DNA of 20,000 nucleotides from an uncultured virus (IMG/VR IMGVR_UViG_3300049791_000126) (Duplodnaviria > Heunggongvirae > Uroviricota > Caudoviricetes). This document shows, one piece after another, positions 2,449 to 20,000 of this stretch. The notes beneath the pieces were generated by a model, which worked only from the letters and a program-made list of their open reading frames with translations, made no database searches and was not told the origin of the DNA. Position 1 is the stretch's first letter; every line of letters starts with the position of its first letter. The position numbers and the translations under genes are program-made. The stretch lies in the IMG/VR virus record IMGVR_UViG_3300049791_000126, one strand, 5' to 3'.

Positions 2449-3026
2449 GTCTCAGCTTACATCGGCGCTGAGCTGCCTCGTCGCGCGCTGCCTGAGGCTT
2501 CGTCTCGGCTTCCATCGGCGCCGAGCAGCCTCCACACGCTTGACGCCGTTGATCTTCGCAACGAACGGCGCGACTGGTCTCGGTTTCCATCGGCGCCGAG
2601 CAGCCTCCACACCCAGCTCGCCCACGGCATACTGGGCGCCATAACGGGTGTCTCGGTTTCCATCGGCACCGAGCAGCCTCCACACCTCACAACGACCCCT
2701 CAGAATGAACGCGAGCTGAGTCGTCTCAGTTTCCATCGGCACCGAGCAGCCTCCACACTTGCTGCCGCTTGTCGTGCAGGTGCTTGGGTATTTGGTCTCA
2801 GTTTCCATCGGCACTGAGCTGCCTCCACACGTGCAAAAGTAGATCCATCACCAAATACCGAGGGAACCCGTCTCAGTTTCCATCGGCACTGAGCTGCCTC
2901 CACACCTCAGGCCTCGTCTCAGTTTCCATCGGCACTGAGCTGCCTCCACACCCTCCAGCGTCAGGGCGCTCGCAGGCAGTTCGTCTTCGTGTCTCAGTTT
3001 CCATCGGCACTGAGCTGCCTCCACAC
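2449..3026 (-). CRISPR. CRISPR array 1: 9 repeats (leftmost degenerate), 8 spacers
   Basis: 36-bp repeat, + strand GTCTCAGTTTCCATCGGCACTGAGCTGCCTCCACAC and variants, starting at 2449, 2502, 2577, 2650, 2723, 2795, 2870, 2916, 2991; spacers 36-39 bp except one of about 17 bp and one of 10 bp; degenerate end on the left, leader on the right. Confidence 0.97.
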
Positions 3027-3170
3027 AGGTCTAGTTGTCACAGAACAATTCCGCCTACTTACATGGCGGTTTGCGAGCGGTTCGAAAATCTACCCTGCCC
3101 ATTCGCGTCGGGCATCGGATTTCCCGGTTTATTTGCATCTAGTTCCCCATCGGCACCGCGGCTCTCGCGA
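3027..3170 (-). promoter_or_regulatory. CRISPR leader of array 1
   Basis: First 54 bp align without gaps to 18838-18891 (39/54 identical); contains CGGTTTGCGAGCGG and TTATTTGCA. Confidence 0.85.
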
Positions 3171-3187
3171 TCACGGTGCAGACGCAG

Positions 3188-4300
3188 TTAGCCAATCCTA
3201 AACACCGTATCCGGCGGCACGACGAGCGAGCCCCCAGCAGTCAGCGTGCCCGAGAACTCACCGAGTCGCCCCTTGCCGTGATAGCTGATGGCCTCTACCT
3301 GCCCGAATCCCCAGAGCTCGGTCAGGACTTCGAAGGCAAGCGGTTTGTCTTTCTCAACTCGGAAGTGGATGTCGTTGATGGTGATGGTCATCAGCTCGGG
3401 CGGCGGAGTCGGCTGCGCCGCGGCTTTGAGCTGCGCTACTTCCGCGAGAAGCGATTCAGCTAGGTCAAGCGCGCTGCTTATTTGGTCACGGCAATGACCA
3501 GCGCGGGCGTAGGATATGTGTCCAAGCCCCGCCTTAGTGAGGTACTCGGCCTGCTTCATCGCGTCCCGGAGAGTACCCGTGAGAAGCGAGTGATCGCTGG
3601 CAGGTTTCGACTCCGCAGCGGCCGTGAGCTGCGCTACTTTTTCGAGCAACGCGAGCACCCCCGTATCGTACTCGGTGCCGTTCAGGCGCACGAAGAGCAT
3701 GCGGCCGGCGGAATCGATGAGCAAGCCCGTCGGCGCGCGCAGCATGGCGCGGAGGGCTTCGGCTTCGGGGTGGGCGGAGAGATCGACCTCGGCGACGGCG
3801 AAGAGCTGCCATAGATCGACATTGAGTCGATCGATGAGGGCGTCCAGGTGCCGGCCTAGGTGGTTTAGTGGGCCGTGTTGCAGCTCACCAGTGCGGAGCG
3901 TGGTGACGAGCGCCTTCACGGTCAGGAGCGCGTCGCGGAATCCTTGGTCGTAGCCGTGGTCTTTTTCCAACCGGCGGCGCGTCAGCAGCTCGGTTCTCAT
4001 CGCATCGTATTTCGATCGAATGCGCCCGAATGCCTCGAGAGCATTCTCATATAAATTCGAGAGTGCGTAGGTGACGAGCTCGAAGTCTTCGGGGGTGGAT
4101 GTGGCTGTGGTGTGTTCGACGGGCTGAATTTCAGCCGCACGATCGCGTTGTTTATGTTCAGCGTGAATGACGCGCGCGTCCTCGACGGGCACATCCTCCG
4201 CCCATGCGGTGTGGAGGTACCCGTGCAACCTCTTCGGGAGCTCATGGAGTTCGTGGTTCGTCACCTCGACGACCCACTTATCGAATGGAGTTCTGGTCAT
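3188..4300 (-). CDS. Hypothetical helical/coiled-coil protein
   Basis: Likely start ATG 4300 (MTRTPF), with ATGA overlap to the upstream stop; 370 aa. Confidence 0.7.
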   Translation of the reverse strand: MTRTPFDKWVVEVTNHELHELPKRLHGYLHTAWAEDVPVEDARVIHAEHKQRDRAAEIQPVEHTTATSTPEDFELVTYALSNLYENALEAFGRIRSKYDAMRTELLTRRRLEKDHGYDQGFRDALLTVKALVTTLRTGELQHGPLNHLGRHLDALIDRLNVDLWQLFAVAEVDLSAHPEAEALRAMLRAPTGLLIDSAGRMLFVRLNGTEYDTGVLALLEKVAQLTAAAESKPASDHSLLTGTLRDAMKQAEYLTKAGLGHISYARAGHCRDQISSALDLAESLLAEVAQLKAAAQPTPPPELMTITINDIHFRVEKDKPLAFEVLTELWGFGQVEAISYHGKGRLGEFSGTLTAGGSLVVPPDTVFRIG

Positions 4301-4587
4301 TTGGTGGCTAGCTTCAAGTGGGGTGGAGGAGCGGGCTCGGTGTCCCGAGCGCGGAGGTCGGCGAGTTGTTGTTCGAGTTCGCAGATACGGGTGATGTCTT
4401 CTGCGGCGTGGGGGTATTCGGTGCCCCAATCTACAGTGCCTTTGGTTACGATCTCTAGCCCAAGTGGAGCAAGCAGAGATCTCAGATCCTGCAACGTTGC
4501 AGGCCTCGTTTCGGTTTCTGTTCGGACGACTAGGTTACTTTGCGCTAAGCGCGCCGAGATCTCCTCGGCAAGTGGAAGTGAAGACAA
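4297..4587 (-). CDS. Hypothetical protein
   Basis: Fits the coupled minus-strand gene run; start uncertain (TTG). Confidence 0.55.
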   Translation of the reverse strand: MSSLPLAEEISARLAQSNLVVRTETETRPATLQDLRSLLAPLGLEIVTKGTVDWGTEYPHAAEDITRICELEQQLADLRARDTEPAPPPHLKLATK

Positions 4588-4600
4588 GATTGCGGGCCTT

Positions 4601-4852
4601 TCATACGCTGCCTTTCGCTCGGTACTGAGCTCGCGGCAGAACGCCTATCGCCCCCTCACTCCCCTCCACGAGTCCGTCGTAAACCTCCCAGCCGATCGAG
4701 ATCACCCGAGGTGAACCGAGCGCTTCCACGTCGCCATTGTCGCTGACCTTCCCGCGCGTCGCCCCGCACTCGCAGATCCGCACCGATTCGACGAGCTTCA
4801 CCACGTCGTCGCAACGCGTGCAGTTGAGCAGCAGCATGGGCCGGCGGGTCAT
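4601..4852 (-). CDS. Small Zn-ribbon protein
   Basis: CTRCDD...CECG; ATG at 4852. Confidence 0.7.
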   Translation of the reverse strand: MTRRPMLLLNCTRCDDVVKLVESVRICECGATRGKVSDNGDVEALGSPRVISIGWEVYDGLVEGSEGAIGVLPRAQYRAKGSV

Positions 4853-4856
4853 GGCG

Positions 4857-5138
4857 TCACCGGAGCCTCGTGCATTCAGCCGAGAGCCGTCCATACGCGC
4901 GCTCACGCCGTCCGAGATCGGGGATCTGGCCGATGCGGTTGTAGGTCCCGACCACGCTCTCCCGCGCGAACCACAGCTGCCGTTCGTGGGGCTTCAGCGC
5001 TTCGATCGATCCACCGTGGAGCGCCACCAAGCGCTTGAGCCAGCCGAAGCGCTCGTCGATACGGGTGAGGCACTCGCGCCGCGCTTCCTCGGCTTTGAGC
5101 AGGGCGCTTTGCGGCGCGGAGAGGATGCGGGCGTTCAT
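4857..5138 (-). CDS. Hypothetical protein
   Basis: 93-aa ORF in operon context. Confidence 0.6.
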   Translation of the reverse strand: MNARILSAPQSALLKAEEARRECLTRIDERFGWLKRLVALHGGSIEALKPHERQLWFARESVVGTYNRIGQIPDLGRRERAYGRLSAECTRLR

Positions 5139-5186
5139 GGGTCGGGCACCAGATGCGGGTACACTGGCACGATTCTCCCGAAAACT

Positions 5187-5318
5187 TCAGCCATGCAATG
5201 GGTATCCGGCTTCGCAAAGCAAACGGAACCGATATTCTCCAGCAGGAAAGCTTATCGGGTGATCCAGTGCGTCCGCGAGCGCGCGTTCGCGTGGACCCTT
5301 GCGCTCTTCGTGGCTCAC
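5187..5318 (-). CDS. Putative 43-aa protein
   Basis: GTGA overlap with the upstream stop; translated by hand as MSHEERKGPRERALADALDHP... Confidence 0.4.
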   Translation of the reverse strand: MSHEERKGPRERALADALDHPISFPAGEYRFRLLCEAGYPLHG

Positions 5319-5599
5319 CGAAGCTTCTCCCGCCTCGAGCAGTACCGATCCACCAAGTCCGAAACCTCCTGGATCGGATCTCCGTGCTCGACCTGCAGCT
5401 CGTCGCAGGCAGCCGCCTCGAGCATGCGGAGCTTTCCGGGAGCGAAAGCTTCCATGGTCAGGAGCACGGCTTCGATCTCGTGGAGGTTCAGGAGGATGCT
5501 CTTCCAGAGGCGGCGATCGGGGTGCGTCGAGAATGGCGCAAAGTGCGCCAAGGCCTCGATGGCATTGCCGATGTCGGTCGTGATCGCTGCTTTAGCCAC
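5315..5599 (-). CDS. Hypothetical protein
   Basis: Overlapping start/stop with neighbouring genes. Confidence 0.6.
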   Translation of the reverse strand: MAKAAITTDIGNAIEALAHFAPFSTHPDRRLWKSILLNLHEIEAVLLTMEAFAPGKLRMLEAAACDELQVEHGDPIQEVSDLVDRYCSRREKLR

Positions 5600-5807
5600 G
5601 GCGCCTCTGAAGCGCGCGGCGCTGCGCGCGGAGATCGTAGAAGAAGTTCTGGGTCACGTAGCCGAGGAGCACCGGCCAGACGATCATGCCCCGCACGAAC
5701 TCCATCCGGGTCATGCAGCCAGAGAGGCACTCGTTGGCGGCGAGCATGAGCAGGCAACCGACGAGCAGGTAGGCGGGGATGATCATGTAGACGAGGGTGA
5801 TGGGCAT
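5592..5807 (-). CDS. Small membrane protein
   Basis: Hydrophobic N-terminal helix, IVWPVLL motif, basic tail. Confidence 0.6.
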   Translation of the reverse strand: MPITLVYMIIPAYLLVGCLLMLAANECLSGCMTRMEFVRGMIVWPVLLGYVTQNFFYDLRAQRRALQRRRG

Positions 5808-5815
5808 GGTGGGTG

Positions 5816-6100
5816 TTACAGGTGAGTTGACAAAATTCTTCCCACGAGTTGGATGGTTTTTCCAGATTTGACGACGGCCGTCAGCCGATGCTGGCCATCG
5901 ATCAATTGGCCTTCGCCGTCAAAACAGATCCCCTGATGAGTGAGTCGCCATTCCCCTGCCAACATGTCGGCCGTAAAGGCATCCACGAGGCGCAGTGAGA
6001 TGTTCCTGTTTCGCGGGTGGTTCTTTGCGAGCCACTTTTCGGCTTGCGAAGGCGTGACAGATTGGGGACCAATTTTCAGAGCTGATTGAGCGCGCGCCAT
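5816..6100 (-). CDS. ParB/Srx-like DGQHR-motif protein, apparently C-terminally truncated
   Basis: VTPSQAEKWL..N.RNR...W.LTHQGICFD..G.LIDGQHRL.A; ends about 23 aa after DGQHR. Confidence 0.75.
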   Translation of the reverse strand: MARAQSALKIGPQSVTPSQAEKWLAKNHPRNRNISLRLVDAFTADMLAGEWRLTHQGICFDGEGQLIDGQHRLTAVVKSGKTIQLVGRILSTHL

Positions 6101-6134
6101 GTGGGGTGATTCCTTTGGAACGGGATACCGGCTG

Positions 6135-6163
6135 ACACTACGCTAGTGGCACACCGCTGTCAA
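6135..6163 (-). promoter_or_regulatory. Putative sigma70-type promoter
   Basis: TTGACA-N17-TAGTGT upstream of the ParB-like gene; 21/29 identical to 18151-18179. Confidence 0.6.
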
Positions 6164-6513
6164 CGCTCCGGATCTGCCGGCTTTCCGCGGCGAAGCTCCG
6201 CTGACAGCTTCGCCGCATGCGCGCACTTTCGAAGAAAGTCCTGCTCGGCGCGCGCGAGCGCCACCTCGGGCTTGCCCCCCACGCCATTGCCCCCTTCGTA
6301 CAGGCTCTCGCCGTGCCCCTCCTCGAGCCCCTGGAAGTGAATGAACGCCGTCCACTCCGGAGGCACCTCAGTATCTTGCGTGTCGCGATAGATGAGCCGC
6401 ACGCGGAGCTTCGGGAGCCGCATCTCCCAGTGCACCTCTTTGCTCGTCGCGTGCGACTGCCGAAACTCCCAGCCGCGCCAGAGGAACTTCTCGCGCGCTG
6501 CGATGCGACTCAC
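6160..6513 (-). CDS. Hypothetical protein
   Basis: 117-aa ORF, GTGA overlap. Confidence 0.6.
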   Translation of the reverse strand: MSRIAAREKFLWRGWEFRQSHATSKEVHWEMRLPKLRVRLIYRDTQDTEVPPEWTAFIHFQGLEEGHGESLYEGGNGVGGKPEVALARAEQDFLRKCAHAAKLSAELRRGKPADPER

Positions 6514-6809
6514 TCGGGGAGCTCGGAAATGGTCCCGTCCGTGCTCTTGAAGATCAGTACGATGGAAGAAGTGGCTCCATGAAAGAGAGCCGCGTAGGCG
6601 CCTTCCACGCGGCTCGATTGAGCGACCTCGACTCGATACAAAATCAGTCCCTCCGTGTCGGGCGGCAGATTGAACTCAACGACGTTGCCAGCGCCGACCC
6701 CGAACGATCGCCGCATTCCATCTTGGAAGACGAAGGTAACGCTCGCCTTGTCAGCAGGAGTGTGAGCGTGAGCGAGGGGTTTGTCGAACATGTTGGAAAA
6801 GTCGATCAT
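6510..6809 (-). CDS. Hypothetical protein
   Basis: AGGAG RBS, ATG 6809 (MIDFSN), ATGA overlap. Confidence 0.65.
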   Translation of the reverse strand: MIDFSNMFDKPLAHAHTPADKASVTFVFQDGMRRSFGVGAGNVVEFNLPPDTEGLILYRVEVAQSSRVEGAYAALFHGATSSIVLIFKSTDGTISELPE

Positions 6810-7147
6810 GGTGACTCCTGGATGCGTTGGGGACGATATTTGGGTTTGCGCTTGAGGCGGCGCTGCTGGTTGCAGTGCGCGCACCGGCACGAACCATACT
6901 CTTGGCCGCGCTCGCCGCACAAGAGACAGGGAGAGGCCTTGATCTCGAAGCCCGGAGGGGAGGCGTTGCGGGAGGGAGCTCGAGCCAGATTTTTCGACCG
7001 AGGCCGCTCGCGCACGGCTCTCCTGAACACGCTCATCGAGCCGCTGGGGCCGAGTAGGCTCGCCACGCGCTTGAAGGTCGACACCGACCCCTGCGCTTCC
7101 TCGAAGATCTCGGTGACCCAGTCCTCGGGCTCGTCCTCGAAGCTCAT
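6806..7147 (-). CDS. Hypothetical protein with C-terminal Zn finger
   Basis: ATG 7147 (MSFEDE); CLLC...CAHC followed by a basic tail. Confidence 0.6.
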   Translation of the reverse strand: MSFEDEPEDWVTEIFEEAQGSVSTFKRVASLLGPSGSMSVFRRAVRERPRSKNLARAPSRNASPPGFEIKASPCLLCGERGQEYGSCRCAHCNQQRRLKRKPKYRPQRIQESP

Positions 7148-7449
7148 GGCGTCTTGATCTGGGTGGAGTCTCTCTCGCCGGTCACGAAAGATACTTCGGT
7201 CCAGATAAATTCGCAGTCGCTGTCGTCTTCGTGGCCTGCCGGTAGGAAAGGCGCCGTGATGACGTAGCCATTTCGGGCGAAGTCGAATTCGATGCGAATA
7301 GGCCGCGCCGCGCGTACGCAAATGAGGTCGACCTCGACCCTCACCGGATGATCGAGCGTGCGATCGGGGTCTTGGGTTCTGGGGTACCAGAGACACGTCG
7401 AGAGCATCTCCCCATCGAACGACAGATCTCCAATGGCGGCGGGTTTCAT
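7144..7449 (-). CDS. Hypothetical protein
   Basis: ATG 7449 overlaps the recombinase stop. Confidence 0.65.
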   Translation of the reverse strand: MKPAAIGDLSFDGEMLSTCLWYPRTQDPDRTLDHPVRVEVDLICVRAARPIRIEFDFARNGYVITAPFLPAGHEDDSDCEFIWTEVSFVTGERDSTQIKTP

Positions 7450-8462
7450 AATAGTCCTCGTCCCGGGTTGTCCTGAAACAAATTCGCGCGCCGGATGTAG
7501 CCCCGGAAGCTCTCGTAGCTCTTGTGTCGCGAGTGACTCATGATCTGCCACTCAGGCCGCCCTGCGCGCGCCGCTTCCGTGATGAAGCCTGCCCGGAGCG
7601 AGTGCCCGCTGAACTCCACGCCCGGTTGGTCGGGGGAGATGTTCGACTTGCGCGCCCACTTCTTCACCACGTCGTTTACTTCCCATTCGGGGATGCGATC
7701 GAGCACTAAGCCGCCGTAGTAGGTGCGCGGAAAGAGCGCTCCCACGATCTCCAGCACATCAGGGCTGGCATCGATCCACGCGCGGAGCGCTGCTACCGGG
7801 CAGAGATCGGGGTTCCCAGCAGGCTCGATGGGGATGAGCTCGCCCTGGCCTTCCTGGTCGGTCTTCGACGACGCAATGGTGAGCTGCACTCCTTCCGGCG
7901 TGAACACCGCATGCTTCCGGTCGAGCGCCGCGATCTCGCTCCTTCGGAGGGCGCCAGCCCAACCGACGAGCAAGAGCGCCTTGTCGCGGATGGCGAGGGG
8001 ATCGGTCGCGGGCATGCGTGCCACGATTTTTTCCAAGTGCCGCACGAGCAGCGGGGGCGCCTGCTCGGGGGCCATCTTGAGCGCGTTCTTGATCTTTCGG
8101 ATATGCTGCTGCACGTGGATCGATTGCCGGGGCGGCACGTAGCCCCGCACCTTGTGGTAGTGCGAGAGGGCCGCCATGGCCCGCTCGATGGTGGCGGGCT
8201 TCTGGGAGCCGCCTGGACGCTCGGGATCGGCCAAGTAGGTGACGTAGAGGATCACGACCTGAGGGGAGGCGGGGAGCGCGCGGTGGCCCCAAGCCGTGCA
8301 CCAGGCATCAAAGCGCTTCCAGTCGCCCTCGTAGGCGCGCTTGGTGTTGGCAGGCGTCCCTTCCCGTTCGAAGCGGAGCGCGCGCACGTAGAGGCGCTCG
8401 GCCTCCACCCGCTGGAGTGGAGAGAGATGTAAGGGATCGGGGCGGCCGAGAAAATCGCTCAC
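7446..8462 (-). CDS. Tyrosine recombinase (Cre/XerD-like site-specific integrase/resolvase)
   Basis: N-terminal NTKRAYEGDWKRF core-binding domain; catalytic motifs ALRRSEI (R), SKTDQ (K), GHSLRAG (HxxR), SRHKS (H), RGYIR (Y). Confidence 0.95.
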   Translation of the reverse strand: MSDFLGRPDPLHLSPLQRVEAERLYVRALRFEREGTPANTKRAYEGDWKRFDAWCTAWGHRALPASPQVVILYVTYLADPERPGGSQKPATIERAMAALSHYHKVRGYVPPRQSIHVQQHIRKIKNALKMAPEQAPPLLVRHLEKIVARMPATDPLAIRDKALLLVGWAGALRRSEIAALDRKHAVFTPEGVQLTIASSKTDQEGQGELIPIEPAGNPDLCPVAALRAWIDASPDVLEIVGALFPRTYYGGLVLDRIPEWEVNDVVKKWARKSNISPDQPGVEFSGHSLRAGFITEAARAGRPEWQIMSHSRHKSYESFRGYIRRANLFQDNPGRGLL

Positions 8463-8902
8463 TACGGGGTAGGATAGCTCTCTTCAGCGCACTCGTCTGC
8501 CCGGAACACCACCACCACTTGGTGATCCATCACAATGACCGGCAGCGTATTGGTCATGGAGCGCAGCTTGAGGGCCTCCTCTGGATCGACCAACTCGAGG
8601 ATGCCCTGCATCCCCTCACGGTCCGCCAGGCCTCGTGCGAATGGGACCTGGCCCTGATCTCGATAGGCTTGCCAGTCGTGGCCAGGCATGAGTATCGCAG
8701 CGAGTTCACCGCCGATCAGGTCATCGACGTTGAGGATCAACAGCGCGCAGGAATCGCTTTTGCCGAGATCGGATGCGCGTTTTTGGAAGTGTGCGATCCG
8801 TTCGGCATTTTGATGGAGCGTAGTCCAGCAATTGTGCTTGCTCACGGCCGTGAGCACCGCGAGCGCTTCGGGGTCATCCAAGATGATGTCGATAGCGGGC
8901 AT
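8462..8902 (-). CDS. Hypothetical protein
   Basis: GGAG RBS, ATG 8902 (MPAIDI); MPGHDWQAYRDQGQVPFARGL segment. Confidence 0.7.
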   Translation of the reverse strand: MPAIDIILDDPEALAVLTAVSKHNCWTTLHQNAERIAHFQKRASDLGKSDSCALLILNVDDLIGGELAAILMPGHDWQAYRDQGQVPFARGLADREGMQGILELVDPEEALKLRSMTNTLPVIVMDHQVVVVFRADECAEESYPTP

Positions 8903-9150
8903 CAGGGTTTCTCCGGGTGCTCTTCGAGTAGCATCTGCATCACAGTGGTTGCTTGACAGAGGGCGTCGAAGTGGTTGACGCCGAAGGAACAGGACAAGAG
9001 CCAATTGGTACCGTCGCTGTGGACATAGGTCACGCGAACTTTGTCGTCCAGGATCTTGCCGATCGCGGAATACTTCCAGCCGCGCTTCGTCCATTGCTCC
9101 AAGATCTCGAGCACGTGGACGGCTTGTTCTGGGGTCGGGGTGGGGGTCAT
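8902..9150 (-). CDS. Hypothetical protein
   Basis: ATG 9150, coupled to neighbouring genes. Confidence 0.6.
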   Translation of the reverse strand: MTPTPTPEQAVHVLEILEQWTKRGWKYSAIGKILDDKVRVTYVHSDGTNWLLSCSFGVNHFDALCQATTVMQMLLEEHPEKP

Positions 9151-9461
9151 ACACTGAACCTTTCCCCCGCTATGAGTGCTTCCAGGTGATCGTCGAGCCA
9201 CTGCTGAGCCCAGTGCTCCGACCAATTCTCCGCTTCACGACATTCCAGCAGGTAAGGGCCGCCAAAGCTGAACTTCGCAATGCGAGGAACGTGCTGATGG
9301 GTTGGATCTTCTGGTCGAACGCTGCCGCTCGTCACGCCCAGCGTGACCCCGGGACGCAGATACAGAAACAGCTCCCAATGACCCGGGGACTCCTCGAATA
9401 GAGCAATGCGCAAGACGCCCAAGTTTTGTTTACGCCCGAGTTTGCTGTCGGACCAGGTCAT
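9147..9461 (-). CDS. Hypothetical protein
   Basis: ATG 9461 (MTWSDS), ATGA overlap. Confidence 0.6.
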   Translation of the reverse strand: MTWSDSKLGRKQNLGVLRIALFEESPGHWELFLYLRPGVTLGVTSGSVRPEDPTHQHVPRIAKFSFGGPYLLECREAENWSEHWAQQWLDDHLEALIAGERFSV

Positions 9462-12255: not shown

Positions 12256-12264
12256 GGTTCGATC

Positions 12265-12579: not shown

Positions 12580-12584
12580 GGGGG

Positions 12585-12845: not shown

Positions 12846-13165
12846 CGCCGTCCCGCGTCCTGATGGATGCCCGCGATGCGGAGGTGGTGGTAGACCTGAT
12901 CCAATAGACCGACCGCGAGGCAAAAGTGCTGCTCGGCAAGTGGCCCAAGCCCGGTCGTCTTCGACTCGAATAACAAATCCGCACGCAGTAGTTCGACGTG
13001 GCGTGCGATCTGGTTGAGATCGTCCGGTTTCGAAAGATCTAGGGTGCTTAGGTCAGGGCAGGTGAGGCCGTTCGGGACCTCTGTCTTGCGCACTGGGATG
13101 CCTTCGGGGACCGAGTCGAGGATCGCTTCGGTTAGGGTCTGCTGGATTTCGGATACGAGGCTCAT
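12842..13165 (-). CDS. Hypothetical protein
   Basis: 107-aa ORF in operon. Confidence 0.65.
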   Translation of the reverse strand: MSLVSEIQQTLTEAILDSVPEGIPVRKTEVPNGLTCPDLSTLDLSKPDDLNQIARHVELLRADLLFESKTTGLGPLAEQHFCLAVGLLDQVYHHLRIAGIHQDAGRR

Positions 13166-13172
13166 GGGCGGC

Positions 13173-13385
13173 TCAGTACAGGGGGTGGGCGAGCAAGCTC
13201 GCAGGTACCGCGCCAGGGGCGCGGAGGTAGGCGTCGCGGTCGATGATGGGGAAGTAGAGCTCGAGGCCGGGGGCGCGGTCGCTGAAGGCCTCCGGGCGGC
13301 GCGTGGGCGCTTCGTCGGCGGTCGGTAGGCCAGCGCGGCGGAGCACGTCGTCGATGTCTCCTTGGGTGACGGTAATAGAAGTCAT
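13173..13385 (-). CDS. Hypothetical protein
   Basis: ATG 13385 (MTSITV), TGATG overlap. Confidence 0.55.
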   Translation of the reverse strand: MTSITVTQGDIDDVLRRAGLPTADEAPTRRPEAFSDRAPGLELYFPIIDRDAYLRAPGAVPASLLAHPLY

Positions 13386-13723
13386 CAGAACTCCAGCACC
13401 ACGAAGCTGCTGTTCTTGTCGGGCACCGCAGCAACCCATACTCGCCGAGGGGATAGCCCCCGTTGCGCATAGTGACCGAAGCCGGAGCTGCCATTCGGCA
13501 GCTCTGTCCAGAGAAGATGGGACCCGACGAGTTCGTGGGCCTCGTCCTGGGCTCCCTTCGTGCCGAAGTAGTGCCCGATGAATTCTCGAGGACCTGGCAT
13601 CGTGGGAAGCACGATGGAGATCAGCAGAGTCGCTCCGTTCAGCCTTTTCTTCGGGCTCACCTCGACGCCAGCTCTGCCGCCGGGGAACACGTCGTGGTGG
13701 TCGGGGTCATTGTGCGTTGCCAT
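13385..13723 (-). CDS. Hypothetical protein
   Basis: AGGA RBS 7 nt before ATG; 112 aa. Confidence 0.65.
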   Translation of the reverse strand: MATHNDPDHHDVFPGGRAGVEVSPKKRLNGATLLISIVLPTMPGPREFIGHYFGTKGAQDEAHELVGSHLLWTELPNGSSGFGHYAQRGLSPRRVWVAAVPDKNSSFVVLEF

Positions 13724-13763
13724 CGTCTTGTCCTACGGAATTGGGGTGGGAGATCTTCCTTAC

Positions 13764-14288
13764 TCAGACGGCCAAGCGATTGGCTTGGCGTACGCCGCAC
13801 TCGCGGACGAAGTGATGGTGGAGAGCCACGTCGCACTCGACGTAGGCGTGGCAGAGACCGCAGTGCGCCTTGCTGTACGGCGAGCGCTCAGGGTGCGTGC
13901 AGCGCGCCTGGAGGGCCTCGCAGACGCGGCAGGCCTTGCGGTACGCCGACTCGAGCGCGCGGCGCTTGGGGCTCGCCTTCGGCAGCTCGCGCCAGCCCTT
14001 CCCCGCCTTCACGAACCGCCCCGAGAGAGCGTCCCGAGCTTCTCGCTCCGCATTGCCAGCAAGGCGGCACTCTTCGCGGAAGGCGGCGTCCGTCGGCGCA
14101 TCGAAGCGGAAGGCGATGACGACGCCCGGGGCGGCCACGTAGGGACCGTAGGCGCGGGCGGAGCAGGTGCACCAGGGGGCGGGCTCGTCACCGCTTTGCG
14201 GGTCGTAGAGGCCGGTCTTTTTGCAGCCCTGGCAGAGGATCTGGTGGGCGGGCAGGGCGGACTTTCGGGTGGCGCTGGAGTGGGTCAT
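13764..14288 (-). CDS. Cys-rich hypothetical protein
   Basis: ATG 14288 (MTHSSA); CQGC, CTC, CTHP...CGLC. Confidence 0.65.
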   Translation of the reverse strand: MTHSSATRKSALPAHQILCQGCKKTGLYDPQSGDEPAPWCTCSARAYGPYVAAPGVVIAFRFDAPTDAAFREECRLAGNAEREARDALSGRFVKAGKGWRELPKASPKRRALESAYRKACRVCEALQARCTHPERSPYSKAHCGLCHAYVECDVALHHHFVRECGVRQANRLAV

Positions 14289-14300
14289 GGCGAGGCTTAT

Positions 14301-14316
14301 TGCAGGGGGCATGCCA
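14301..14316 (-). promoter_or_regulatory. Putative sigma54 (-24/-12) promoter
   Basis: Minus strand TGGCATGCCCCCTGCA: GG-N10-GC spacing, close to the TGGCACG-N4-TTGCW consensus. Confidence 0.55.
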
Positions 14317-14399
14317 GGGGTCAGGCTTGGGCTTTTGCTGGTTTTTGAGGGGTGACGGCCCGGGAAGGCCGTCACAGGTGACGGTGTTACGGTGGGCTG

Positions 14400-14588
14400 T
14401 TACGACACCACCCCCGAGAAAGCTGGCACCCAGACGGCCACCAGGCCCTGGGGGTCGGTCACGTAGTAGTCTTCTGCGGGCTCCCCCGGGGCTGCGCGCC
14501 GCCGGCCATCGCGCGCGATGATATCGTCCACCTTGCGGCAGAGCGCGCAGCGACAGTCGGCTTCGTGCCGGATGATCTTCGTGCTCAT
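14400..14588 (-). CDS. Small hypothetical protein
   Basis: ATG 14588; HEADCRCALC motif. Confidence 0.55.
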   Translation of the reverse strand: MSTKIIRHEADCRCALCRKVDDIIARDGRRRAAPGEPAEDYYVTDPQGLVAVWVPAFSGVVS

Positions 14589-14704
14589 GGCTCGTCGTCG
14601 TGCCGCGTGAGCGAGCCCTTGAGCTTGAGGATACCAGTCGCGGCACCGACTGCTACCGTGACGCAGCCGATCACCGCGAACACATGCTCGACCGCTTGCG
14701 ACAT
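14585..14704 (-). CDS. 39-aa single-TM peptide
   Basis: MSQAVEHVFAVIGCVTVAVGAATGILK; coupled on both sides. Confidence 0.5.
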   Translation of the reverse strand: MSQAVEHVFAVIGCVTVAVGAATGILKLKGSLTRHDDEP

Positions 14705-16086
14705 CACTCTTCCCCAAACGCTTCCGCGAGCTCTTCCGCCGTGTAGGCGTCCTCCTCGTACTCGACCGACTCGAGACCCTGCTCGCCCGTCGTGGGGTTT
14801 TGCGCCCAGGTATCTCGCACGCGCTTGCAGCCGCAGTGACGACACACCTCGGTGATGATGACTCCGCTGCCGTTGCCGTGCACGCCGGGGTTCTCGGTGA
14901 GGCCACCGACGAGGCAGTGGGGGGACTGCCAGTCGTGCGTTTCGCCGTCCTCGCAGTCGGGCGCTGGGGCCTCTAGCGTGACTGTCTCGGAGGCGTCTTC
15001 GCCCGTCTCTTCGCAGCTCACGCGTACGTCAATGTACAGCGTGCCGGTGCTCTCGGGGTAGTTGGCGCGGTCGCAGTTGTCGCGAGCAATCCCGAGCGCC
15101 TCTTCGGCGCTCTCGGCCGTGATCGTGTCGTACTCGAAACCCTCTTCGCGGAGATCCCACTGGCGGGGGCAGTCGGAGTCGAGAAGAGCTTCGCGGGCTT
15201 CCCGCGCTTGCTGTTCAGCGTCGCGGAGCGCGGTATGGGCAAGGGAGAGATTCGCCGTGTTGTCTTCACCGGCGAGGTTCGCGGCCTCTTCGGCTTCCTC
15301 GTATTCCGTTTGCGCGATGAGGAGCATCGCATCGGCGAAGTCCTTGGTCGCCCGGAGCGCTTGTGCGCTGCCGACTTCGCTCATGCGCGCCGGGCAGCCA
15401 CTCCGCTCCAGGGTAGCGACGATCTCGACCGCTTCGCTCTCGGTCAACCCAATCGCTGCACCATAAGACATCCGACGCGGTTGGCCGGGCTGCTGCTGAC
15501 GGTCGGCGACAGTCCACTCCTCGGTGCCGTTCCCATCGTCGCTACGGAGCGCCTCGACAGTGTAGAGTGTCTCGGTCGCTTGCATCTCGATTTGGCTGAG
15601 TTGGGTCATGGTGTCTTGTCCTACGCTCGGGCCGCGGGGACCTTCCCTGCGGCGCCAGTCGGCCGCGATCTTGGCGACCGCCACGAGGCATTCTTCGAGT
15701 GCGGCGTAGTCGATCACGACCGGGCGAGCTCGGGATGGGAGCCCGCGCTGCGCGATCATGTTGGCGACGAAGAGCGTGGGGGTCACCTTGGCGAGTGACA
15801 TCGCGCCGAGCTGGTGCGGCTTAGTCTCCTTGATCGCGTTCCGGTAGCTTGCTTCTGGCCTGGGTGACAAGCGCGAGAGCGCTCGGGTGAAGCCCGCTCC
15901 CCACGCGCCCACGTCATTGCACACGTGCACGATGAAGCGCTCGTGGTGCCCCGTGTCGAACGGCTTCGTCGCGTCGCCCACGAGGTAAGAGATCTTGGTT
16001 GGCTCAGGCGTATCGCTGCGCGGGAGGCGCCCCTCGACCGCCGCCTGATGCGCGATCGCATCCTCTAGCGACTTGAAATCTCTCAT
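14704..16086 (-). CDS. Truncated macrodomain (TARG1/DarG-like) fused in frame to an acidic protein that has its own start at 15609
   Basis: ISYLVGDAT...IVHVCNDVGAWGAGF...VANMIAQ...IDYAALEECL; the C-terminal PRIGCGLAGG-type motif is absent; internal AGGA RBS plus ATG 15609 (MTQLSQ). Confidence 0.75.
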   Translation of the reverse strand: MRDFKSLEDAIAHQAAVEGRLPRSDTPEPTKISYLVGDATKPFDTGHHERFIVHVCNDVGAWGAGFTRALSRLSPRPEASYRNAIKETKPHQLGAMSLAKVTPTLFVANMIAQRGLPSRARPVVIDYAALEECLVAVAKIAADWRRREGPRGPSVGQDTMTQLSQIEMQATETLYTVEALRSDDGNGTEEWTVADRQQQPGQPRRMSYGAAIGLTESEAVEIVATLERSGCPARMSEVGSAQALRATKDFADAMLLIAQTEYEEAEEAANLAGEDNTANLSLAHTALRDAEQQAREAREALLDSDCPRQWDLREEGFEYDTITAESAEEALGIARDNCDRANYPESTGTLYIDVRVSCEETGEDASETVTLEAPAPDCEDGETHDWQSPHCLVGGLTENPGVHGNGSGVIITEVCRHCGCKRVRDTWAQNPTTGEQGLESVEYEEDAYTAEELAEAFGEE

Positions 16087-16304
16087 GGCGTTCGCCGCCC
16101 GCCCAAGAGCGCGCAGCGCACTTTCAGGACTTGACCATAGTTTCGGGTGGAGACGCTGCCGCGCGTGGCCGGCATTGTCGATTGGCATTCTCTGCAGGTC
16201 CAGGCGCAGGCGTGTTCGGCGCGAGTGATGCTCGGGCAAACTCCATGCTCATCGAACGCGGCGATGGTCGCGCGCATGTAACTGATGCTTTTGGGTTCGG
16301 TCAT
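16083..16304 (-). CDS. Small hypothetical protein
   Basis: ATG 16304, ATGA overlaps; Cys motifs. Confidence 0.5.
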   Translation of the reverse strand: MTEPKSISYMRATIAAFDEHGVCPSITRAEHACAWTCRECQSTMPATRGSVSTRNYGQVLKVRCALLGGRRTP

Positions 16305-16483
16305 GCTGGTCCCAGTATCCAACCACGCCGCACGGCTTCCTTGTAGAGCCATTCGCCGCAACGGCGTGAACTCCATATCGACGATATTCCGCTGGCGTCG
16401 AGCGCGTCACCGAGAGCATCTTGTTGCGCTTCAGATAGCGGCTGAAGCGCGCGGCGGAAGTCCGACCAAGCGCCCGCGATCAT
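16301..16483 (-). CDS. Small hypothetical protein
   Basis: 60 aa, ATGA overlaps at both ends. Confidence 0.55.
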   Translation of the reverse strand: MIAGAWSDFRRALQPLSEAQQDALGDALDASGISSIWSSRRCGEWLYKEAVRRGWILGPA

Positions 16484-16761
16484 CGCGAGCCGTACCCAGC
16501 TGCCGCCTCATCAACCGTCAAGCCCTGCACCCTGTACAGCGGAGGTTGCCCCGTCGAGCCTGCGGGAGCCGACCGCTGTTCGATCTCGGCACTGACGAGC
16601 TCGCCGTAGTGATCATACTGAAACCGCACGATCATGTTGTACTCGCCTGTCAAGCCATTCTTGAGCGCCGCGGCAAATCCGAGAGCGTTCATGATCTCCG
16701 CCTTGGTCAGTGTCGTCTTGGTAACCGGCCGCGTGTCCTCTGAGTCGTCCTGTATGGTCAT
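16480..16761 (-). CDS. Hypothetical protein, first gene of the minus-strand run
   Basis: 93-aa ORF. Confidence 0.6.
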   Translation of the reverse strand: MTIQDDSEDTRPVTKTTLTKAEIMNALGFAAALKNGLTGEYNMIVRFQYDHYGELVSAEIEQRSAPAGSTGQPPLYRVQGLTVDEAAAGYGSR

Positions 16762-16787
16762 TCCGCGATAATATCACTTATCGCGGA
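16762..16787. repeat. Perfect 10-6-10 inverted repeat, dif/lox-like recombination site or operator
   Basis: TCCGCGATAA-TATCAC-TTATCGCGGA. Confidence 0.7.
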
Positions 16788-16817
16788 CTATGTGATAGTG
16801 GGCTACTCACTTTTTCA

Positions 16818-16847
16818 TTGACCGATCCAAGCCTCATCGCGTAGTTT
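16818..16847 (+). promoter_or_regulatory. Putative sigma70-type promoter for the tRNA-like/PTH2 cassette
   Basis: TTGACC-N18-TAGTTT, with a T-tract upstream. Confidence 0.5.
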
Positions 16848-16858
16848 CCAGGCGTGGC

Positions 16859-16939
16859 TTGACAGTCAGCGCGTCGCGCACCGAGGTAGCCCCGAATCCG
16901 ATCTTGGATTCTTTGGACTTTTGTGCGTTTGCTGCCTGA
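16859..16939 (+). CDS. Possible 26-aa small ORF ending AFAA
   Basis: TTG start; (M)TVSASRTEVAPNPILDSLDFCAFAA; no clear RBS. Confidence 0.25.
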   Translation: MTVSASRTEVAPNPILDSLDFCAFAA

Positions 16940-16953
16940 ACCTAGCCGTCATT

Positions 16954-17022
16954 GCCTCCCTAGCTCAGCTGGTATAGCACCGCTCGCTGCGGAGGCCCGA
17001 CGTTCAAATCGTCGGGGAGGCT
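16954..17022 (+). tRNA. tRNA-like gene with a shortened anticodon arm (no assignable anticodon; Thr-like body)
   Basis: Acceptor GCCTCCC/GGGAGGC; D arm GCTC-AGCTGGTA-TAGC; T arm CGACG-TTCAAAT-CGTCG; anticodon arm only CCGC-TCGCT-GCGG (13 nt versus 17). Confidence 0.85.
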
Positions 17023-17029
17023 CCTGTTC

Positions 17030-17107
17030 GCGCTCCTAGCTCAGTTGGTAGAGCGCCCGGTGTAAGCAATCGGGAGGTCAATGGTTCGAGCCCATTGGAG
17101 CGCACCA
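17030..17107 (+). tRNA. tRNA-like gene with an enlarged anticodon arm and encoded CCA
   Basis: Acceptor GCGCTCC/GGAGCGC-ACCA; canonical D and T arms; anticodon arm CCCGG-TGTAAGCAA-TCGGG (19 nt). Confidence 0.9.
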
Positions 17108-17123
17108 CACGAAAGGACACGTC

Positions 17124-17459
17124 ATGCAGAAGCTCTACGTCGTCACCCGGTCAGATCTGAGTCCTGGCGCGATCGTCGCGCAGTCTTGTCACGCGATCAG
17201 CGCCTTCGCGGTGCGCTTCCCCGAAGAACACCGGGCTTGGCACGCGCATGGACAGAACCTCGTCGTACTCGCAGCTACTGATGAGCAGTCGCTCGATCGG
17301 TTGATGAGCACGCTTGAGGACACGCATCAGATCCCATGCACAGCTTTCTTCGAACCCGATCTCAGTGATTCGCTCACGGCCTTTGCCGTTAGTGACCGTG
17401 CAGCAAAGCTGCTGTCATGCCTACCCCTCGCGCTCCGCGAGCCGCGCTGCGCCGCTTAG
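17124..17459 (+). CDS. PTH2-family peptidyl-tRNA hydrolase-like protein
   Basis: KLYVVTRSDLSPGAIVAQSCHA N-terminal motif, LVVL, FFEPDL...LTA; AAGGA RBS. Confidence 0.85.
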   Translation: MQKLYVVTRSDLSPGAIVAQSCHAISAFAVRFPEEHRAWHAHGQNLVVLAATDEQSLDRLMSTLEDTHQIPCTAFFEPDLSDSLTAFAVSDRAAKLLSCLPLALREPRCAA

Positions 17460-17788
17460 TAGTTACCCCCGAACACGTGACCCTCACCATGGGTCAATTC
17501 GTTGGCCCATTCGCGCGCGGTCACCTTCAGGTGCCAGTGGACGTGCTTCAGATCCGGAACGCCATTATGCGTGAGCGCCCGCTGGTACTCACGCGGATCG
17601 TCAAACGTGTCGTCAGCCGACTCGCCGGACACCTCGATCAGTTCGTCGTCAGGCACGTCGCGCTTGAAGTCATCGGTAGCCAGACCTTCCTCACCACATT
17701 CGGCATCATAGATCCGGAAGGCATCGTCCCTGCTCGCGGCAGCGTAGAAGCCGCCTTCCGCGAATTCATACAAATGCTTGTCAGCCAT
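17456..17788 (-). CDS. Acidic hypothetical protein
   Basis: 110-aa ORF convergent with the PTH2 gene. Confidence 0.65.
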   Translation of the reverse strand: MADKHLYEFAEGGFYAAASRDDAFRIYDAECGEEGLATDDFKRDVPDDELIEVSGESADDTFDDPREYQRALTHNGVPDLKHVHWHLKVTAREWANELTHGEGHVFGGNY

Positions 17789-18143
17789 TGGGCTTCTTCA
17801 CGAGCTCTCTGAGGTAGATCGTGTCGCCCTTCGCGCTCGGCGAATAGAGCACGTCCTTGTAGCGGAGATTCCCGCGGCCGAGTGTCGCGACGACTTTCTC
17901 GGCCGCAGCGTCGCGCGTCTTGATGGCGTCCTTCACCATCTGTCGGGCGCGGTCGACGACCTTATCGGCCTTCTCCCATTCTTCGAGCAATCGGCGTTTG
18001 GTAGCCTCCGTCGCAAGCTCGGGTTTGGCTGCGAGCGCCAGGGCTTCGAGCCGATCCTTACCGGTGAGCGGCGGCGCTGGCTCTTCAGCGAGATCTTGGC
18101 GGTCTTCACTCATGTTTTGCGGAGTCCTGACTGGGGCATTCAC
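17781..18143 (-). CDS. Hypothetical coiled-coil protein
   Basis: 120-aa ORF (alternative start ATG 18113) downstream of a promoter. Confidence 0.7.
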   Translation of the reverse strand: MNAPVRTPQNMSEDRQDLAEEPAPPLTGKDRLEALALAAKPELATEATKRRLLEEWEKADKVVDRARQMVKDAIKTRDAAAEKVVATLGRGNLRYKDVLYSPSAKGDTIYLRELVKKPNG

Positions 18144-18150
18144 CCGTTTA

Positions 18151-18179
18151 CCACTACGCTGCCATCACAGTGCTGTCAA
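18151..18179 (-). promoter_or_regulatory. Putative sigma70-type promoter
   Basis: TTGACA-N17-TAGTGG; similar to 6135-6163. Confidence 0.55.
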
Positions 18180-18219
18180 TGTAAATACATCGGGGCCAAG
18201 TATCTCGAGGGCCGCCTAG

Positions 18220-18837
18220 GTCTCAGCTTCCGTCGGCACTGAGCAGCCTCCGCACATTCTGGCGAAGCACAAGATCCGGGTGCTGTTCTCGAGTCTCAGC
18301 TTCCGTCGGCGCTGAGCAGCCTCCACACTCGTGAAGCAGCTGAGGAGGCCCTCAAGTAGGACCCAAGTCTCAGCTTCCGTCGGCGCTGAGCAGCCTCCAC
18401 ACAACACTGGGAATCGCCTGCCGGTGGGCACTTCCGGGTCTCAGCTTCCGTCGGCGCTGAGCAGCCTCCACACAAAGAGACCCACCCCGAGCGAGAAGAA
18501 GCCCAACGGGTCTCAGCTTCCGTCGGCGCTGAGCAGCCTCCACACTTGCGTGCTGGTGACAAGCGCTACGCCGTTAGGCGCTTGTCTCAGCTTCCGTCGG
18601 CGCTGAGCAGCCTCCACCGAGGAGATTGGGGCGGGTTGCTGCGCTCGACATGACGTCTCAGCTTCCGTCGGCGCTGAGCAGCCTCCACACTCGTGCAAGT
18701 CAGTACCAGGCGGGATCGTCGCAGCATCGTCTCAGCTTCCGTCGGCGCTGAGCAGCCTCCACACGTTCGAACTCGCCGAGCCCGCCCCAGGCGCTCCAGA
18801 CGTCTCAGCTTCCGTCGGCGCTGAGCAGCCTCCACAC
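18220..18837 (-). CRISPR. CRISPR array 2: 9 repeats, 8 spacers
   Basis: + strand repeat GTCTCAGCTTCCGTCGGCGCTGAGCAGCCTCCACAC at 18220 (2 mismatches), 18293, 18367, 18438, 18510, 18584 (lacks terminal AC), 18655, 18729, 18802; spacers 35-38 bp. Confidence 0.98.
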
Positions 18838-18972
18838 ACGTCTAGTCATAGCAGAACAACTTCGTACCCTTACGAATCGGTTTGCGAGCGGCTCCCCTCG
18901 AGCCTAGTCGTGCAACCATTTTCTCCGCGTTATTTGCACCCTGTACTGGCGCAGCACCTCGGCGCTCGCAAA
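18838..18972 (-). promoter_or_regulatory. CRISPR leader of array 2
   Basis: Homologous to 3027-3170; inverted repeat TTTGCGAGCG (18881-18890) / CGCTCGCAAA (18963-18972). Confidence 0.85.
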
Positions 18973-19019
18973 AGCCCGCGCTGGCGTACTGACGGTTAGC
19001 TGCGGTAAGATCTCTTCCC

Positions 19020-19319
19020 ATGCCGACCCTTCAGCACCCCAACGTTTCCTGGGTAGCTTGCGACAGCTTGGCGCCTGGCGTCTTCCGCTGCGTCTGCCGA
19101 GTCTGCCATGCGCAAATGGAGAACAGCGGATCAGGGCAAGCGGCCGACCAGTTCGCTCGGGTGCATTCAGCACATGAGAGCGCAAGTCCGACGCATTTCG
19201 GACTCGGAGATCTGATTGCCAAAGCGACGAGCGCAGTTGGAATCAAGCCGTGTTCGCCATGTGAGGCGAGGCGACGAGCAATGAATGGGGCGTTCCCACA
19301 GGTGCTGCGGAGACGGTAA
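19020..19319 (+). CDS. Small Cys/His-rich phage-type protein
   Basis: CRVC...H..H and GLGDLIAKATSAVGIKPCSPCEARRRAMN motifs. Confidence 0.7.
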   Translation: MPTLQHPNVSWVACDSLAPGVFRCVCRVCHAQMENSGSGQAADQFARVHSAHESASPTHFGLGDLIAKATSAVGIKPCSPCEARRRAMNGAFPQVLRRR

Positions 19320-20000
19320 CCGAGCTGCCTCCACACGCCATTTTGTCTCACCTCGTCTCGGGTTCCTTCGGCCACGAGCTGCCTCCACACGTTCGGCTCG
19401 CTGGCGCGCGGTTGGTGACGAGCGTCGTCTCGGGTTCCGTCGGCCCCGAGCTGCCTCCACACTTTGAAAAGCTCGTCGAGAATGTAGAGCGTTCCGAGGT
19501 CTCGGGTTCCGTCGGCCCCGAGCTGCCTCCACACGTGACATCGGATGGGCGCGCACTGGAATGAGCCAAAGCAGTCTCGGGTTCCGTCGGCCCCGAGCTG
19601 CCTCCACACTCAAGACTCGCCCGCGCCGCTCGTTGACGGCGCTCGCCGCGTCTCGGATTCCGTCGGCCCCGAGCTGCCTCCACACTCCCGCAACGGCGGC
19701 GGCGCAATGCCGAGCGGCATGTCTCGGATTCCGTCGGCCCCGAGCTGCCTCCACACGTGAAATGCATCTCGGAATGCGTGCTTGAGCTCAGGCTCGTCTC
19801 GGATTCCGTCGGCCCCGAGCTGCCTCCACACAGGCAGGCAACGTGGGGCGACTGCGCAAGATCACGGTCTCGGATTCCGTCGGCCCCGAGCTGCCTCCAC
19901 ACCCTGGAATCCGGGAGCACCGGAGTTCTCCGTTTCCGGTCTCGGATTCCGTCGGCCCCGAGCTGCCTCCACACGGCGCAAACGAGCGAAGCGCCTGCGA
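19320..20000 (-). CRISPR. CRISPR array 3: 1 half repeat plus 9 full repeats, probably continuing past the window end
   Basis: + strand repeat GTCTCGG(G/A)TTCCGTCGGCCCCGAGCTGCCTCCACAC at 19355 (degenerate), 19427, 19499, 19574, 19650, 19721, 19796, 19867, 19939; half repeat 19320-19336; spacers 35-40 bp, first one 18 bp. Confidence 0.98.

Follow-up and report, generated by a model that had tools for sequence, protein, structure and literature searches.

A tailed soil phage with three CRISPR arrays that probably belong to a type V-M (Cas12m) system without an adaptation module

Introduction

Huge phages encode CasPhi (Cas12j), a compact type V effector of CRISPR and CRISPR-associated (Cas) systems, which is paired with a 36-nucleotide (nt) repeat ending in a hairpin plus AC and is without an adaptation module. 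The closest described counterparts of the locus considered here are type V-M systems, whose effector is Cas12m. The locus comprises three CRISPR arrays in a 20,000-nt stretch of DNA of an uncultured tailed virus (IMG/VR record IMGVR_UViG_3300049791_000126; the whole stretch analyzed is hereafter called the window). An earlier note on this stretch described the arrays as Cas-less and offered two explanations, hijacking of a host system or a compact effector encoded beyond the window.

Cas12m proteins with D-E-D, H-D-D, and N-D-D triads in RuvC bind DNA flanked by a protospacer adjacent motif (PAM) and do not cut it (PMC11013384; PMC10442227). They silence plasmids and phages, need no trans-activating CRISPR RNA (tracrRNA), and process precursor CRISPR RNA (pre-crRNA) independently of RuvC (PMC11013384; PMC10442227). 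Mature guides are ∼17–20 nt long, and the Cas12m2 scaffold derives from a 36-nt repeat (PMC10442227). Altered RuvC triads, N-E-D included, are listed for Cas12m clades 3 and 4, after Wu et al. (2022).

Cas12m systems of phages that lack an adaptation module have been published before. A preprint that presents the first phage Cas12m describes MvCas12m of myxophage MV-1, a protein of 610 amino acids (aa) whose triad is D-E-D and whose single array has eight spacers (bioRxiv 10.64898/2026.09.14.751636). A 2024 review states that V-M is "also encoded by some prophages," and a Cas12m of 583 aa that derives from IMG/VR was employed in a study of 2024. Two other candidate precedents do not apply: the "Cas12 hacker" (Cas12p) preprint concerns a different, tracrRNA-dependent family, and Cas12m is only a reference clade in a landfill virome paper.

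Results

The three arrays very likely belong to a type V-M CRISPR-Cas12m system of a tailed soil phage of ∼135 kb that is without an adaptation module and whose effector gene is expected just past the window. As the earlier note had it, a 36-nt repeat occurs in three co-oriented blocks. These hold 9 + 9 + 9 copies, all 27 on the minus strand. Array 1 (2449–3026), located between two convergent genes, has nine repeats and eight spacers, two of which are truncated (10 and 17 nt), and its terminal repeat (2449–2484) is degenerate. Array 2 (18220–18837) also has nine repeats (seven identical, one distal variant, and one 2 nt short), separated by eight spacers of 35–38 nt. Array 3 (19355–20000) has nine repeats up to 19974 (two sub-variants plus a degenerate distal one) with eight full spacers, and at its high end a 26-nt spacer fragment runs up to position 20000, where it is cut by the window edge. 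At the leader-distal end of array 3 is a truncated terminal repeat consisting of the first 17 nt only (19320–19336, minus strand). Repeat starts are 71–76 nt apart except for the two short units in array 1, and 22 of the 24 spacers of the window are 35–40 nt, the other two being those of 10 and 17 nt. In the window no spacer recurs, whether inside one array or from one array to another (blastn-short, E ≤ 1e-3), in agreement with the earlier comparison by eye.

Written in minus-strand orientation, the repeat is GTGTGGAGGC[A/T]GCTC[A/G]G.GCCGA[T/C]GGAA...GAGAC, and in an alignment the degenerate consensus proposed earlier fits every variant in the window. That each array has its own repeat variant likewise holds, with the addition that array 1 alone grades, from leader-proximal to distal, through five variants, its degenerate terminal repeat excluded. 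A covariance model built from 28 repeat variants (of the window and of three relatives described below, G001, G002, and L003) recovered the same 27 units, all on the minus strand, plus one truncated unit at 19316–19336 (E 0.034). It found no further unit in the 20 kb, no repeat-like unit on the opposite strand of the window, and, for the window, G001, and G002 alike, no solitary repeat outside arrays at E < 0.01. Worn or truncated repeats occupy the low-coordinate ends of the arrays (2449, 18220, 19355, and 19320), and the high-coordinate ends of arrays 1 and 2 adjoin a conserved flank, the leader, that is common to G001, G002, and L003; the arrays are therefore read on the minus strand. With regular repeats, unique spacers, and a polarity of leader and degenerate end, the three blocks are CRISPR arrays.

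The structure of the repeat is conserved as well. The pairing tested across the 28 variants comprises a 6-bp stem (positions 13–18 with 29–34) and a possible 3-bp tertiary pairing (8–10 with 19–21). Cells are paired in 97.6% of cases versus 89.1% in shuffles, with 0 of 500 shuffles reaching the observed value, and sliding the partner reduces pairing to 29–42% of cells. Changes on both sides occur in four of nine pairs; pair 16/31, for example, is G-C in 21 variants, A-U in four, and G-U in three. The stem is thus backed by compensatory changes across variants. Folding energies of single repeats show nothing unusual. The window repeat ends in ...AGCUCAGUGCCGAUGGAAACUGAGAC and the repeat of the MsCas12m crRNA in ...AGCUCAGGGGCUCGAAAACUGAGAC (supplement, PMC11013384). 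Compared with the crRNAs of MsCas12m and GoCas12m (PMC11013384), the window repeat has the 36-nt length, 3′ stem-loop, and GAGAC end of type V-M, to which it can be assigned. The earlier hint at a compact type V system was apt, and the subtype, then considered unassignable, can now be named V-M (Cas12m).

The genome context is that of a phage. A 28-nt core of the repeat is present in one IMG/VR contig and four Joint Genome Institute metagenome contigs, and within viral and metagenome collections it is confined to this phage family. One relative, G001, is an IMG/VR genome of 135,429 bp with direct terminal repeats, rated 100% complete. Its phage-type genes (PHROGs, 117 of 160 called open reading frames [ORFs]) encode a tail fibre, a coat protein, a DnaB-like helicase, thymidylate synthase, and sigma factors. 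Window positions 476–18182 are colinear with G001 5363–25390 at ∼72–90% identity, and the array comes next in G001. This genome has a single array, of 23 repeats, at the site of window arrays 2 and 3 and none at the array-1 site. The colinearity, along with a tyrosine integrase gene (7446–8462, minus strand) and five more ORFs that match PHROG families, bears out the earlier description of a phage-like element. Two metagenome contigs, L003 and L005, are closer relatives, with flanks 88–94% identical to the window and array 1 at the same site. A second large relative, G002 (110,728 bp, linear, 82% complete), has a cas12m ortholog of 514 aa followed by the same leader and an array with its own repeat variant. 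G002 (L014) was considered as the continuation of the window and rejected because array 3 has another repeat variant.

In G001 the gene adjoining the array encodes a Cas12m. The 488-aa ORF (P0002; L001 11579–13045, minus strand, L001 being the piece of G001 that holds the locus, with L001 13075–13222 equal to G001 28975–29122) ends 69 nt upstream of the first repeat. Among PDB sequences, phmmer matched it to Cas12m 23vw_A (E 3.8e-36) and to UnCas12m4a (2.7e-10), and PADLOC classified it as Cas12u1, the old name of Cas12m (5e-48). An AlphaFold2 model (mean predicted local distance difference test score 85.1) has Cas12m2 and GoCas12m as its top four Foldseek matches in PDB (E 1e-17 to 1e-20), followed by Cas12f and TnpB. 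Identity with Cas12j was considered and rejected: CasPhi-2 ranks 23 by Foldseek (E 1.7e-7, template modeling score 0.41), and the best matches in both sequence and fold are Cas12m.

A library-wide HMMER search yielded 2,655 relatives of P0002, of which the nearest form a compact clade (52 clusters at 90% clustering, E ≤ 1e-40). Its full-length members are 435–520 aa long, two are shorter fragments, and several lie on contigs of 126–136 kb. In an alignment, the RuvC positions are N-E-D in 53 of 53 compact sequences, the zinc-ribbon cysteines are retained, and 50 of 53 end in AAE. All ten longer Cas12m-like proteins that were aligned have Asp at the first RuvC position and a helical insertion of ∼90 aa in the N-terminal region, and the compact clade is without both. 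By analogy to characterized Cas12m, proteins of the compact clade would bind DNA without cleavage. A viral scan found 14 Cas12m-like loci, three pairs of which look like duplicates; the RuvC-I position is Asn in eight, Asp in five, and truncated in one. With G001 excluded, an array is directly downstream in 9 of 13 of these loci (simple k-mer test). Six-frame searches of G001 and G002 found Cas1 or Cas2 in neither genome (Cas4 was not separately searched in six frames), and PADLOC found no cas gene other than cas12m in 117 of the 160 called ORFs of G001, with ORFs shorter than 110 aa unscanned. Within these searches and those of the window given below, the window, G001, and G002 are without an adaptation module (cas1, cas2, and cas4).

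The window has no gene of a cas family, as searched with Pfam and PHROGs in 44 ORFs and with NCBIfam and PADLOC in the eight to nine largest ORFs. A 413-aa ORF upstream of array 1 (3188–4429, minus strand) was considered as an effector and rejected, having no family match and no Cas12 or nuclease motifs. The effector is instead expected beyond the array-3 leader. The soil metagenome run X1 contains 0.85 of the sampled words of window 15000–20000, and its contigs were placed on L001 9000–13400 at 80% likeness. Records 1 (7,868 bp, depth 12.1) and 4 (7,484 bp, depth 11.5) represent the window itself: the spacer at 18256–18292 is on one of them, and the other reaches the array-1 leader. Record 5 (23,352 bp, depth 12.1) covers L001 11584–13048, nearly all of cas12m, at 82–92% identity in the aligned pieces. 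It terminates ∼100 nt past cas12m, at a joint that leads to a repeat, as expected if array 3 interrupted the assembly and cas12m follows directly beyond it. A cas12m gene stands beside the syntenic array in G001 (488 aa) and G002 (514 aa), and this contig from the window's own sample covers nearly all of one. Synteny with two relatives and a contig of the same depth point to the place where the earlier note had suggested a compact type V effector. Its description of the arrays as Cas-less is accurate for the 20 kb and for arrays 1 and 2, but for array 3 it probably reflects, in large part, the position of the window edge.

Arrays 1 and 2 are effector-less duplicates of a cas12m-adjacent array. 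Regions upstream of first repeats were aligned to G001. The leader of array 1 (3027–3094, minus strand) is homologous to the 69-nt leader between cas12m and the array in G001 (52 of 69 columns identical) and is followed upstream by a decayed, noncoding 3′ end of cas12m (3095–3169, minus strand) that comprises the final ∼75 nt, with 53 of 75 positions as in G001. The leader of array 2 (18838–18894, minus strand) has a 12-nt deletion relative to G001 (36 of 69 columns identical) and likewise adjoins a decayed cas12m 3′ end (18895–18970, minus strand; 48 of 76 identical, with a weak tblastn match at 18970–18914). The same elements at array 1 of L003 are identical to G001 in 50 of 69 and 55 of 76 positions. 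Upstream of the remnant, identity falls to background (51 of 118 for array 1, 40 of 126 for array 2, and 51 of 118 for L003). The copied segment encodes CESCGAAWDQDANN...AAE in G001, a peptide that the window copies no longer encode, and these two dead fragments are all that the window has of cas12m. Because a leader and a cas12m 3′ remnant adjoin both, each secondary array represents a duplicated module of gene 3′ end, leader, and array. Window positions 19152–19354 match the trailer flank in G001, and array 2 was inserted into this flank of array 3. Short blocks of remnant and leader are invariant in all four copies, though noncoding in three of them, a hint that the array promoter may lie in these blocks. 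One terminator-like site is present at 3114–3128 (plus strand; shuffled mean 0.5).

Arrays of the relatives show further kinds of change. Two spacers of the G001 array (L001 9891–9928 and 10397–10440) are near-duplicates (34 of 36), flanking repeat included, indicating that arrays also change by internal segmental duplication. In G001, the cas12m start codon is preceded, at a distance of 29 nt, by three worn repeats of the same orientation with spacers of 25 and 15 nt (L001 13075–13222). They are missing in G002 and, from a loose end at 13048, in the X1 contig, and may represent the relic of an array or serve in self-regulation. G002 has a second, degenerate array at the far contig end (L027 6352–6693, equal to G002 110351–110692), opposite in direction to its main array, with six heterogeneous repeats, spacers of 18–35 nt, and compensatory stem changes (e.g., CTCGAT/ATCGAG).

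Spacers of the relatives give some indication of targets. Family spacers of at least 30 nt number 55, including 22 of the window, and for three of the 55 there is a match in family DNA at E < 1e-5. A G001 spacer (L001 11141–11174) matches the window at 14150–14183, in an ORF on the minus strand (13764–14375), in 31 of 34 positions, and the G001 ortholog of that ORF in 30 of 34. This makes the window phage a possible target of its relative. Another G001 spacer matches G001 itself in part, at 20 of 20. The third, from G002 (L014 7794–7831), matches cas12m at codons 37–49, in its own copy (G002 1850–1887) at 36 of 38 with the 5′ flank CTTC and in G001 cas12m (28799–28836) at 33 of 38 with the 5′ flank GCTC. 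Such a spacer could be either a weapon against cas12m of rivals or a means of autoregulation. The 5′ flanks of the two informative spacers (..CCGT in the window and G001; ..CTTC and ..GCTC in G002 and G001) are too few for the derivation of a PAM that the earlier note had proposed.

Taken together, array 3 would be the primary array, at the site occupied in relatives by an array that directly follows a compact cas12m (488–514 aa), and cas12m would most likely be located just beyond position 20000 on the minus strand. Arrays 1 and 2 would be secondary copies, generated by duplication of an array with a module of ∼150 nt that consists of the leader and the final ∼75 nt of cas12m; one copy would have entered the flank at the trailer end of array 3, and the second a site 15 kb away, between convergent genes. 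Extending from published Cas12m work, all three arrays are predicted to be transcribed on the minus strand, their transcripts to yield crRNAs with a 5′ repeat handle of ∼33–36 nt and a guide of 17–20 nt, and the Cas12m-crRNA complex to bind PAM-flanked DNA and, leaving it uncut, block transcription or replication. A single effector would be served by the three arrays together. Judging by the three spacers of relatives, the main targets would be kin phages, and the system would act in competition between related phages in one host.

Several points weigh against this account. The effector is outside the window, in which tblastn with the G001 Cas12m gave a best E of 0.88. Assemblies break in the arrays and do not join the window to the X1 cas12m contig; the cas12m alignment of that contig is also 1 nt shorter than G001 with seven single-base gaps, which puts intactness of the gene in doubt. 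Binding without cutting is an extrapolation for N-E-D because the Cas12m triads tested in the literature consulted are D-E-D, H-D-D, and N-D-D (PMC11013384). A scan of both leaders in the window for sigma-70-like promoters gave 0 sites, which leaves independent transcription of arrays 1 and 2 conjectural, and array 1, given its two truncated spacers and mixed repeat variants, may be decaying. Lastly, the 22 full-length spacers of the window have no convincing target in INPHARED, G002, or the family and other viral Cas12m loci, so mapping them to viral sequences, as the earlier note advised, was unproductive. Distant searches of INPHARED with both array regions gave best E values of 0.5–0.8, to Xanthomonas and Caulobacter phages, which are taken as chance. 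In ∼400 kb of family and other viral Cas12m loci, the best E of a window spacer was 0.008, and no window spacer matches the window or its relatives.

Some of these points would also follow if arrays 1 and 2 were dead duplicates left by recombination and array 3 alone worked. The state of array 1, with spacers of 10 and 17 nt, five variants in eight repeats, and a degenerate terminal repeat, the failure to find a promoter consensus at the leaders, and the fact that G001 lives without array 1 are all consistent with loss of function. Conversely, array 2 has retained seven of nine identical repeats and full-length spacers, the repeats show compensatory changes in the stem, and the invariant blocks of remnant and leader in four copies suggest a retained signal. 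Array 1 is moreover kept in relatives of 88–94% identity with entirely different spacers: between the window (2449–3026) and L003 (9560–9813) or L005 (9993–10318), none of the seven available spacers of the relatives is in common, trailer end included. This argues for turnover over passive decay, and suggests that spacers are replaced rapidly without a Cas1-Cas2 of the phage. We therefore consider it unlikely that both arrays are dead.

The spacer matches can also be read as repression of the phage's own genes and not those of rivals. Cas12m only binds DNA, three worn repeats lie just ahead of G001 cas12m, and imperfect self matches occur in G001 (30 of 34 and the 20 of 20 partial match) and in G002, whose own cas12m is matched at 36 of 38 with a TTC 5′ flank. 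But all self matches are imperfect, and one spacer is closer to kin (the window, 31 of 34) than to self, as would be predicted for spacers derived from kin. The spacers of the window match neither the window nor its relatives, and spacer content differs wholly between close relatives, unlike a hard-wired circuit. Self-regulation as the role of the system is accordingly rated quite improbable.

Orphan arrays could alternatively load a host-encoded Cas12m or another Cas protein, the hijack proposed in the earlier note. Such dependence would account for 20 kb without a cas gene and for the lack of an effector adjoining arrays 1 and 2, and relatives without Cas1 or Cas2 must in any case gain new spacers through outside help or recombination. 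The repeat, however, points away from a host system: its 28-nt core was found in 0 contigs of 185,579 GTDB species-representative genomes, among which the host may be unrepresented, and in viral and metagenome collections is confined to this phage family. Both relatives in which the region is known encode cas12m beside the array, both orphan arrays descend from a cas12m-adjacent array, and a cas12m contig is present in run X1 at the window's depth. A hijack is thus left without support and seems very unlikely. That the repeats serve as RNA decoys (RNA anti-CRISPRs), poisoning the CRISPR system of a host, is extremely improbable: the arrays are long, with full-length spacers of diverse sequence, relatives encode a cognate effector, solitary repeats are absent as noted above, and the repeat is in no host genome of the GTDB search.

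Other features of the window bear less on the arrays. The tyrosine integrase is kept in a 135-kb phage genome with direct terminal repeats. A gene for a PTH2-like hydrolase (Pfam/PHROGs) is located at 17124–17459 (plus strand), and the other Pfam and PHROGs matches in the window are to a few phage families of unknown function. Adjacent transfer RNA (tRNA) genes, tRNA-Ala(CGC) and tRNA-Leu(AAG), are predicted by ARAGORN at 16954–17107, where Rfam at gathering thresholds finds no tRNA; the same site in G001 has tRNA-Ser and tRNA-Leu. Over the whole window, Rfam at these thresholds has 0 matches. Among the other products of G001 are a Doc-like toxin, two sigma factors, and glycosyltransferases. 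At 9990–10003, 7 kb from the arrays, is a 14-nt exact reverse complement of repeat positions 20–33 (E 0.002 in a window-only search). It is the sole repeat complement in the window, relatives did not align there, and it is probably chance or a relic. Megablast of window 3027–18219 against INPHARED gave no match, and no RNA data sets are listed as sharing window 15000–20000.

Discussion

With an effector most likely next to array 3, what appeared to be a puzzle of arrays without Cas becomes a typed system, V-M. The dead gene fragments record the duplication and thereby show how a phage spreads arrays around its genome. The compact clade, at 435–520 aa smaller than characterized Cas12m, whose length is about 580–610 aa in the literature consulted, is of possible interest for compact DNA binders, and spacer matches to genes of kin phages, cas12m among them, offer a testable case of CRISPR interference of virus against virus.

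These elements raise a broader possibility that we put forward tentatively, namely that a lineage of ∼135-kb soil phages with a hypercompact N-E-D Cas12m increases its capacity for guides by copying its self-contained module to further sites in the genome, with the array promoter carried inside the gene end, and directs arrays of fast turnover against kin, including the cas12m of rivals. In the same tentative vein, the compact N-E-D clade might be the smallest natural Cas12m clade in the literature consulted. Preprint supplements and Wu et al. (2022) lie outside that literature, in which we found no uniformly N-E-D clade of 435–520 aa, no dispersal of arrays by a module of gene end plus leader, and no spacer against cas12m. 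If true, module copying and anti-cas12m spacers would amount to CRISPR-against-CRISPR warfare between related viruses.

Proposed competition between viruses is also what links the family to the mini-arrays of viruses, given the matches of spacers of the window's relatives to genes of kin viruses. Virus mini-arrays, however, are described as recruited single components that lean on a host system, whereas the window family has its own effector and long arrays (8 to 22 spacers). To CasPhi the system is similar in compactness, phage origin, the hairpin of a 36-nt repeat, and lack of an adaptation module, but its effector is not Cas12j. The mode of action would differ as well, because Cas12j cuts DNA and the Cas12m proteins tested so far only bind.

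The system is closest to characterized V-M systems (those of MmCas12m2, GoCas12m, and MsCas12m; formerly V-U1). A 36-nt repeat whose 3′ stem-loop ends in GAC is common to both, and the 3′ half of the window repeat is nearly the same as that of MsCas12m. Both pair an effector with an array without cas1, cas2, or cas4, their effectors are homologous in sequence and fold, and both are associated with mobile elements. They differ in effector length (435–520 aa in this clade versus about 560–680 aa), in the N-terminal insertion confined to longer Cas12m, and in the uniform N-E-D triad and the prevalent AAE terminus of this clade. The element is also of another kind, a phage genome of lytic type, 135 kb long with terminal repeats, and not a plasmid. 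Moreover, the window phage has three arrays, two of them dispersed along with dead gene fragments, unlike characterized V-M. The MvCas12m locus resembles the window family in that a phage Cas12m adjoins an array without adaptation genes and, by prediction for the window family, without tracrRNA, and in that the spacers of the carrier are without confident targets. The two are set apart by an effector of 610 aa with D-E-D and one array in MvCas12m, compared with an effector clade of 435–520 aa with N-E-D and three arrays in the window family.

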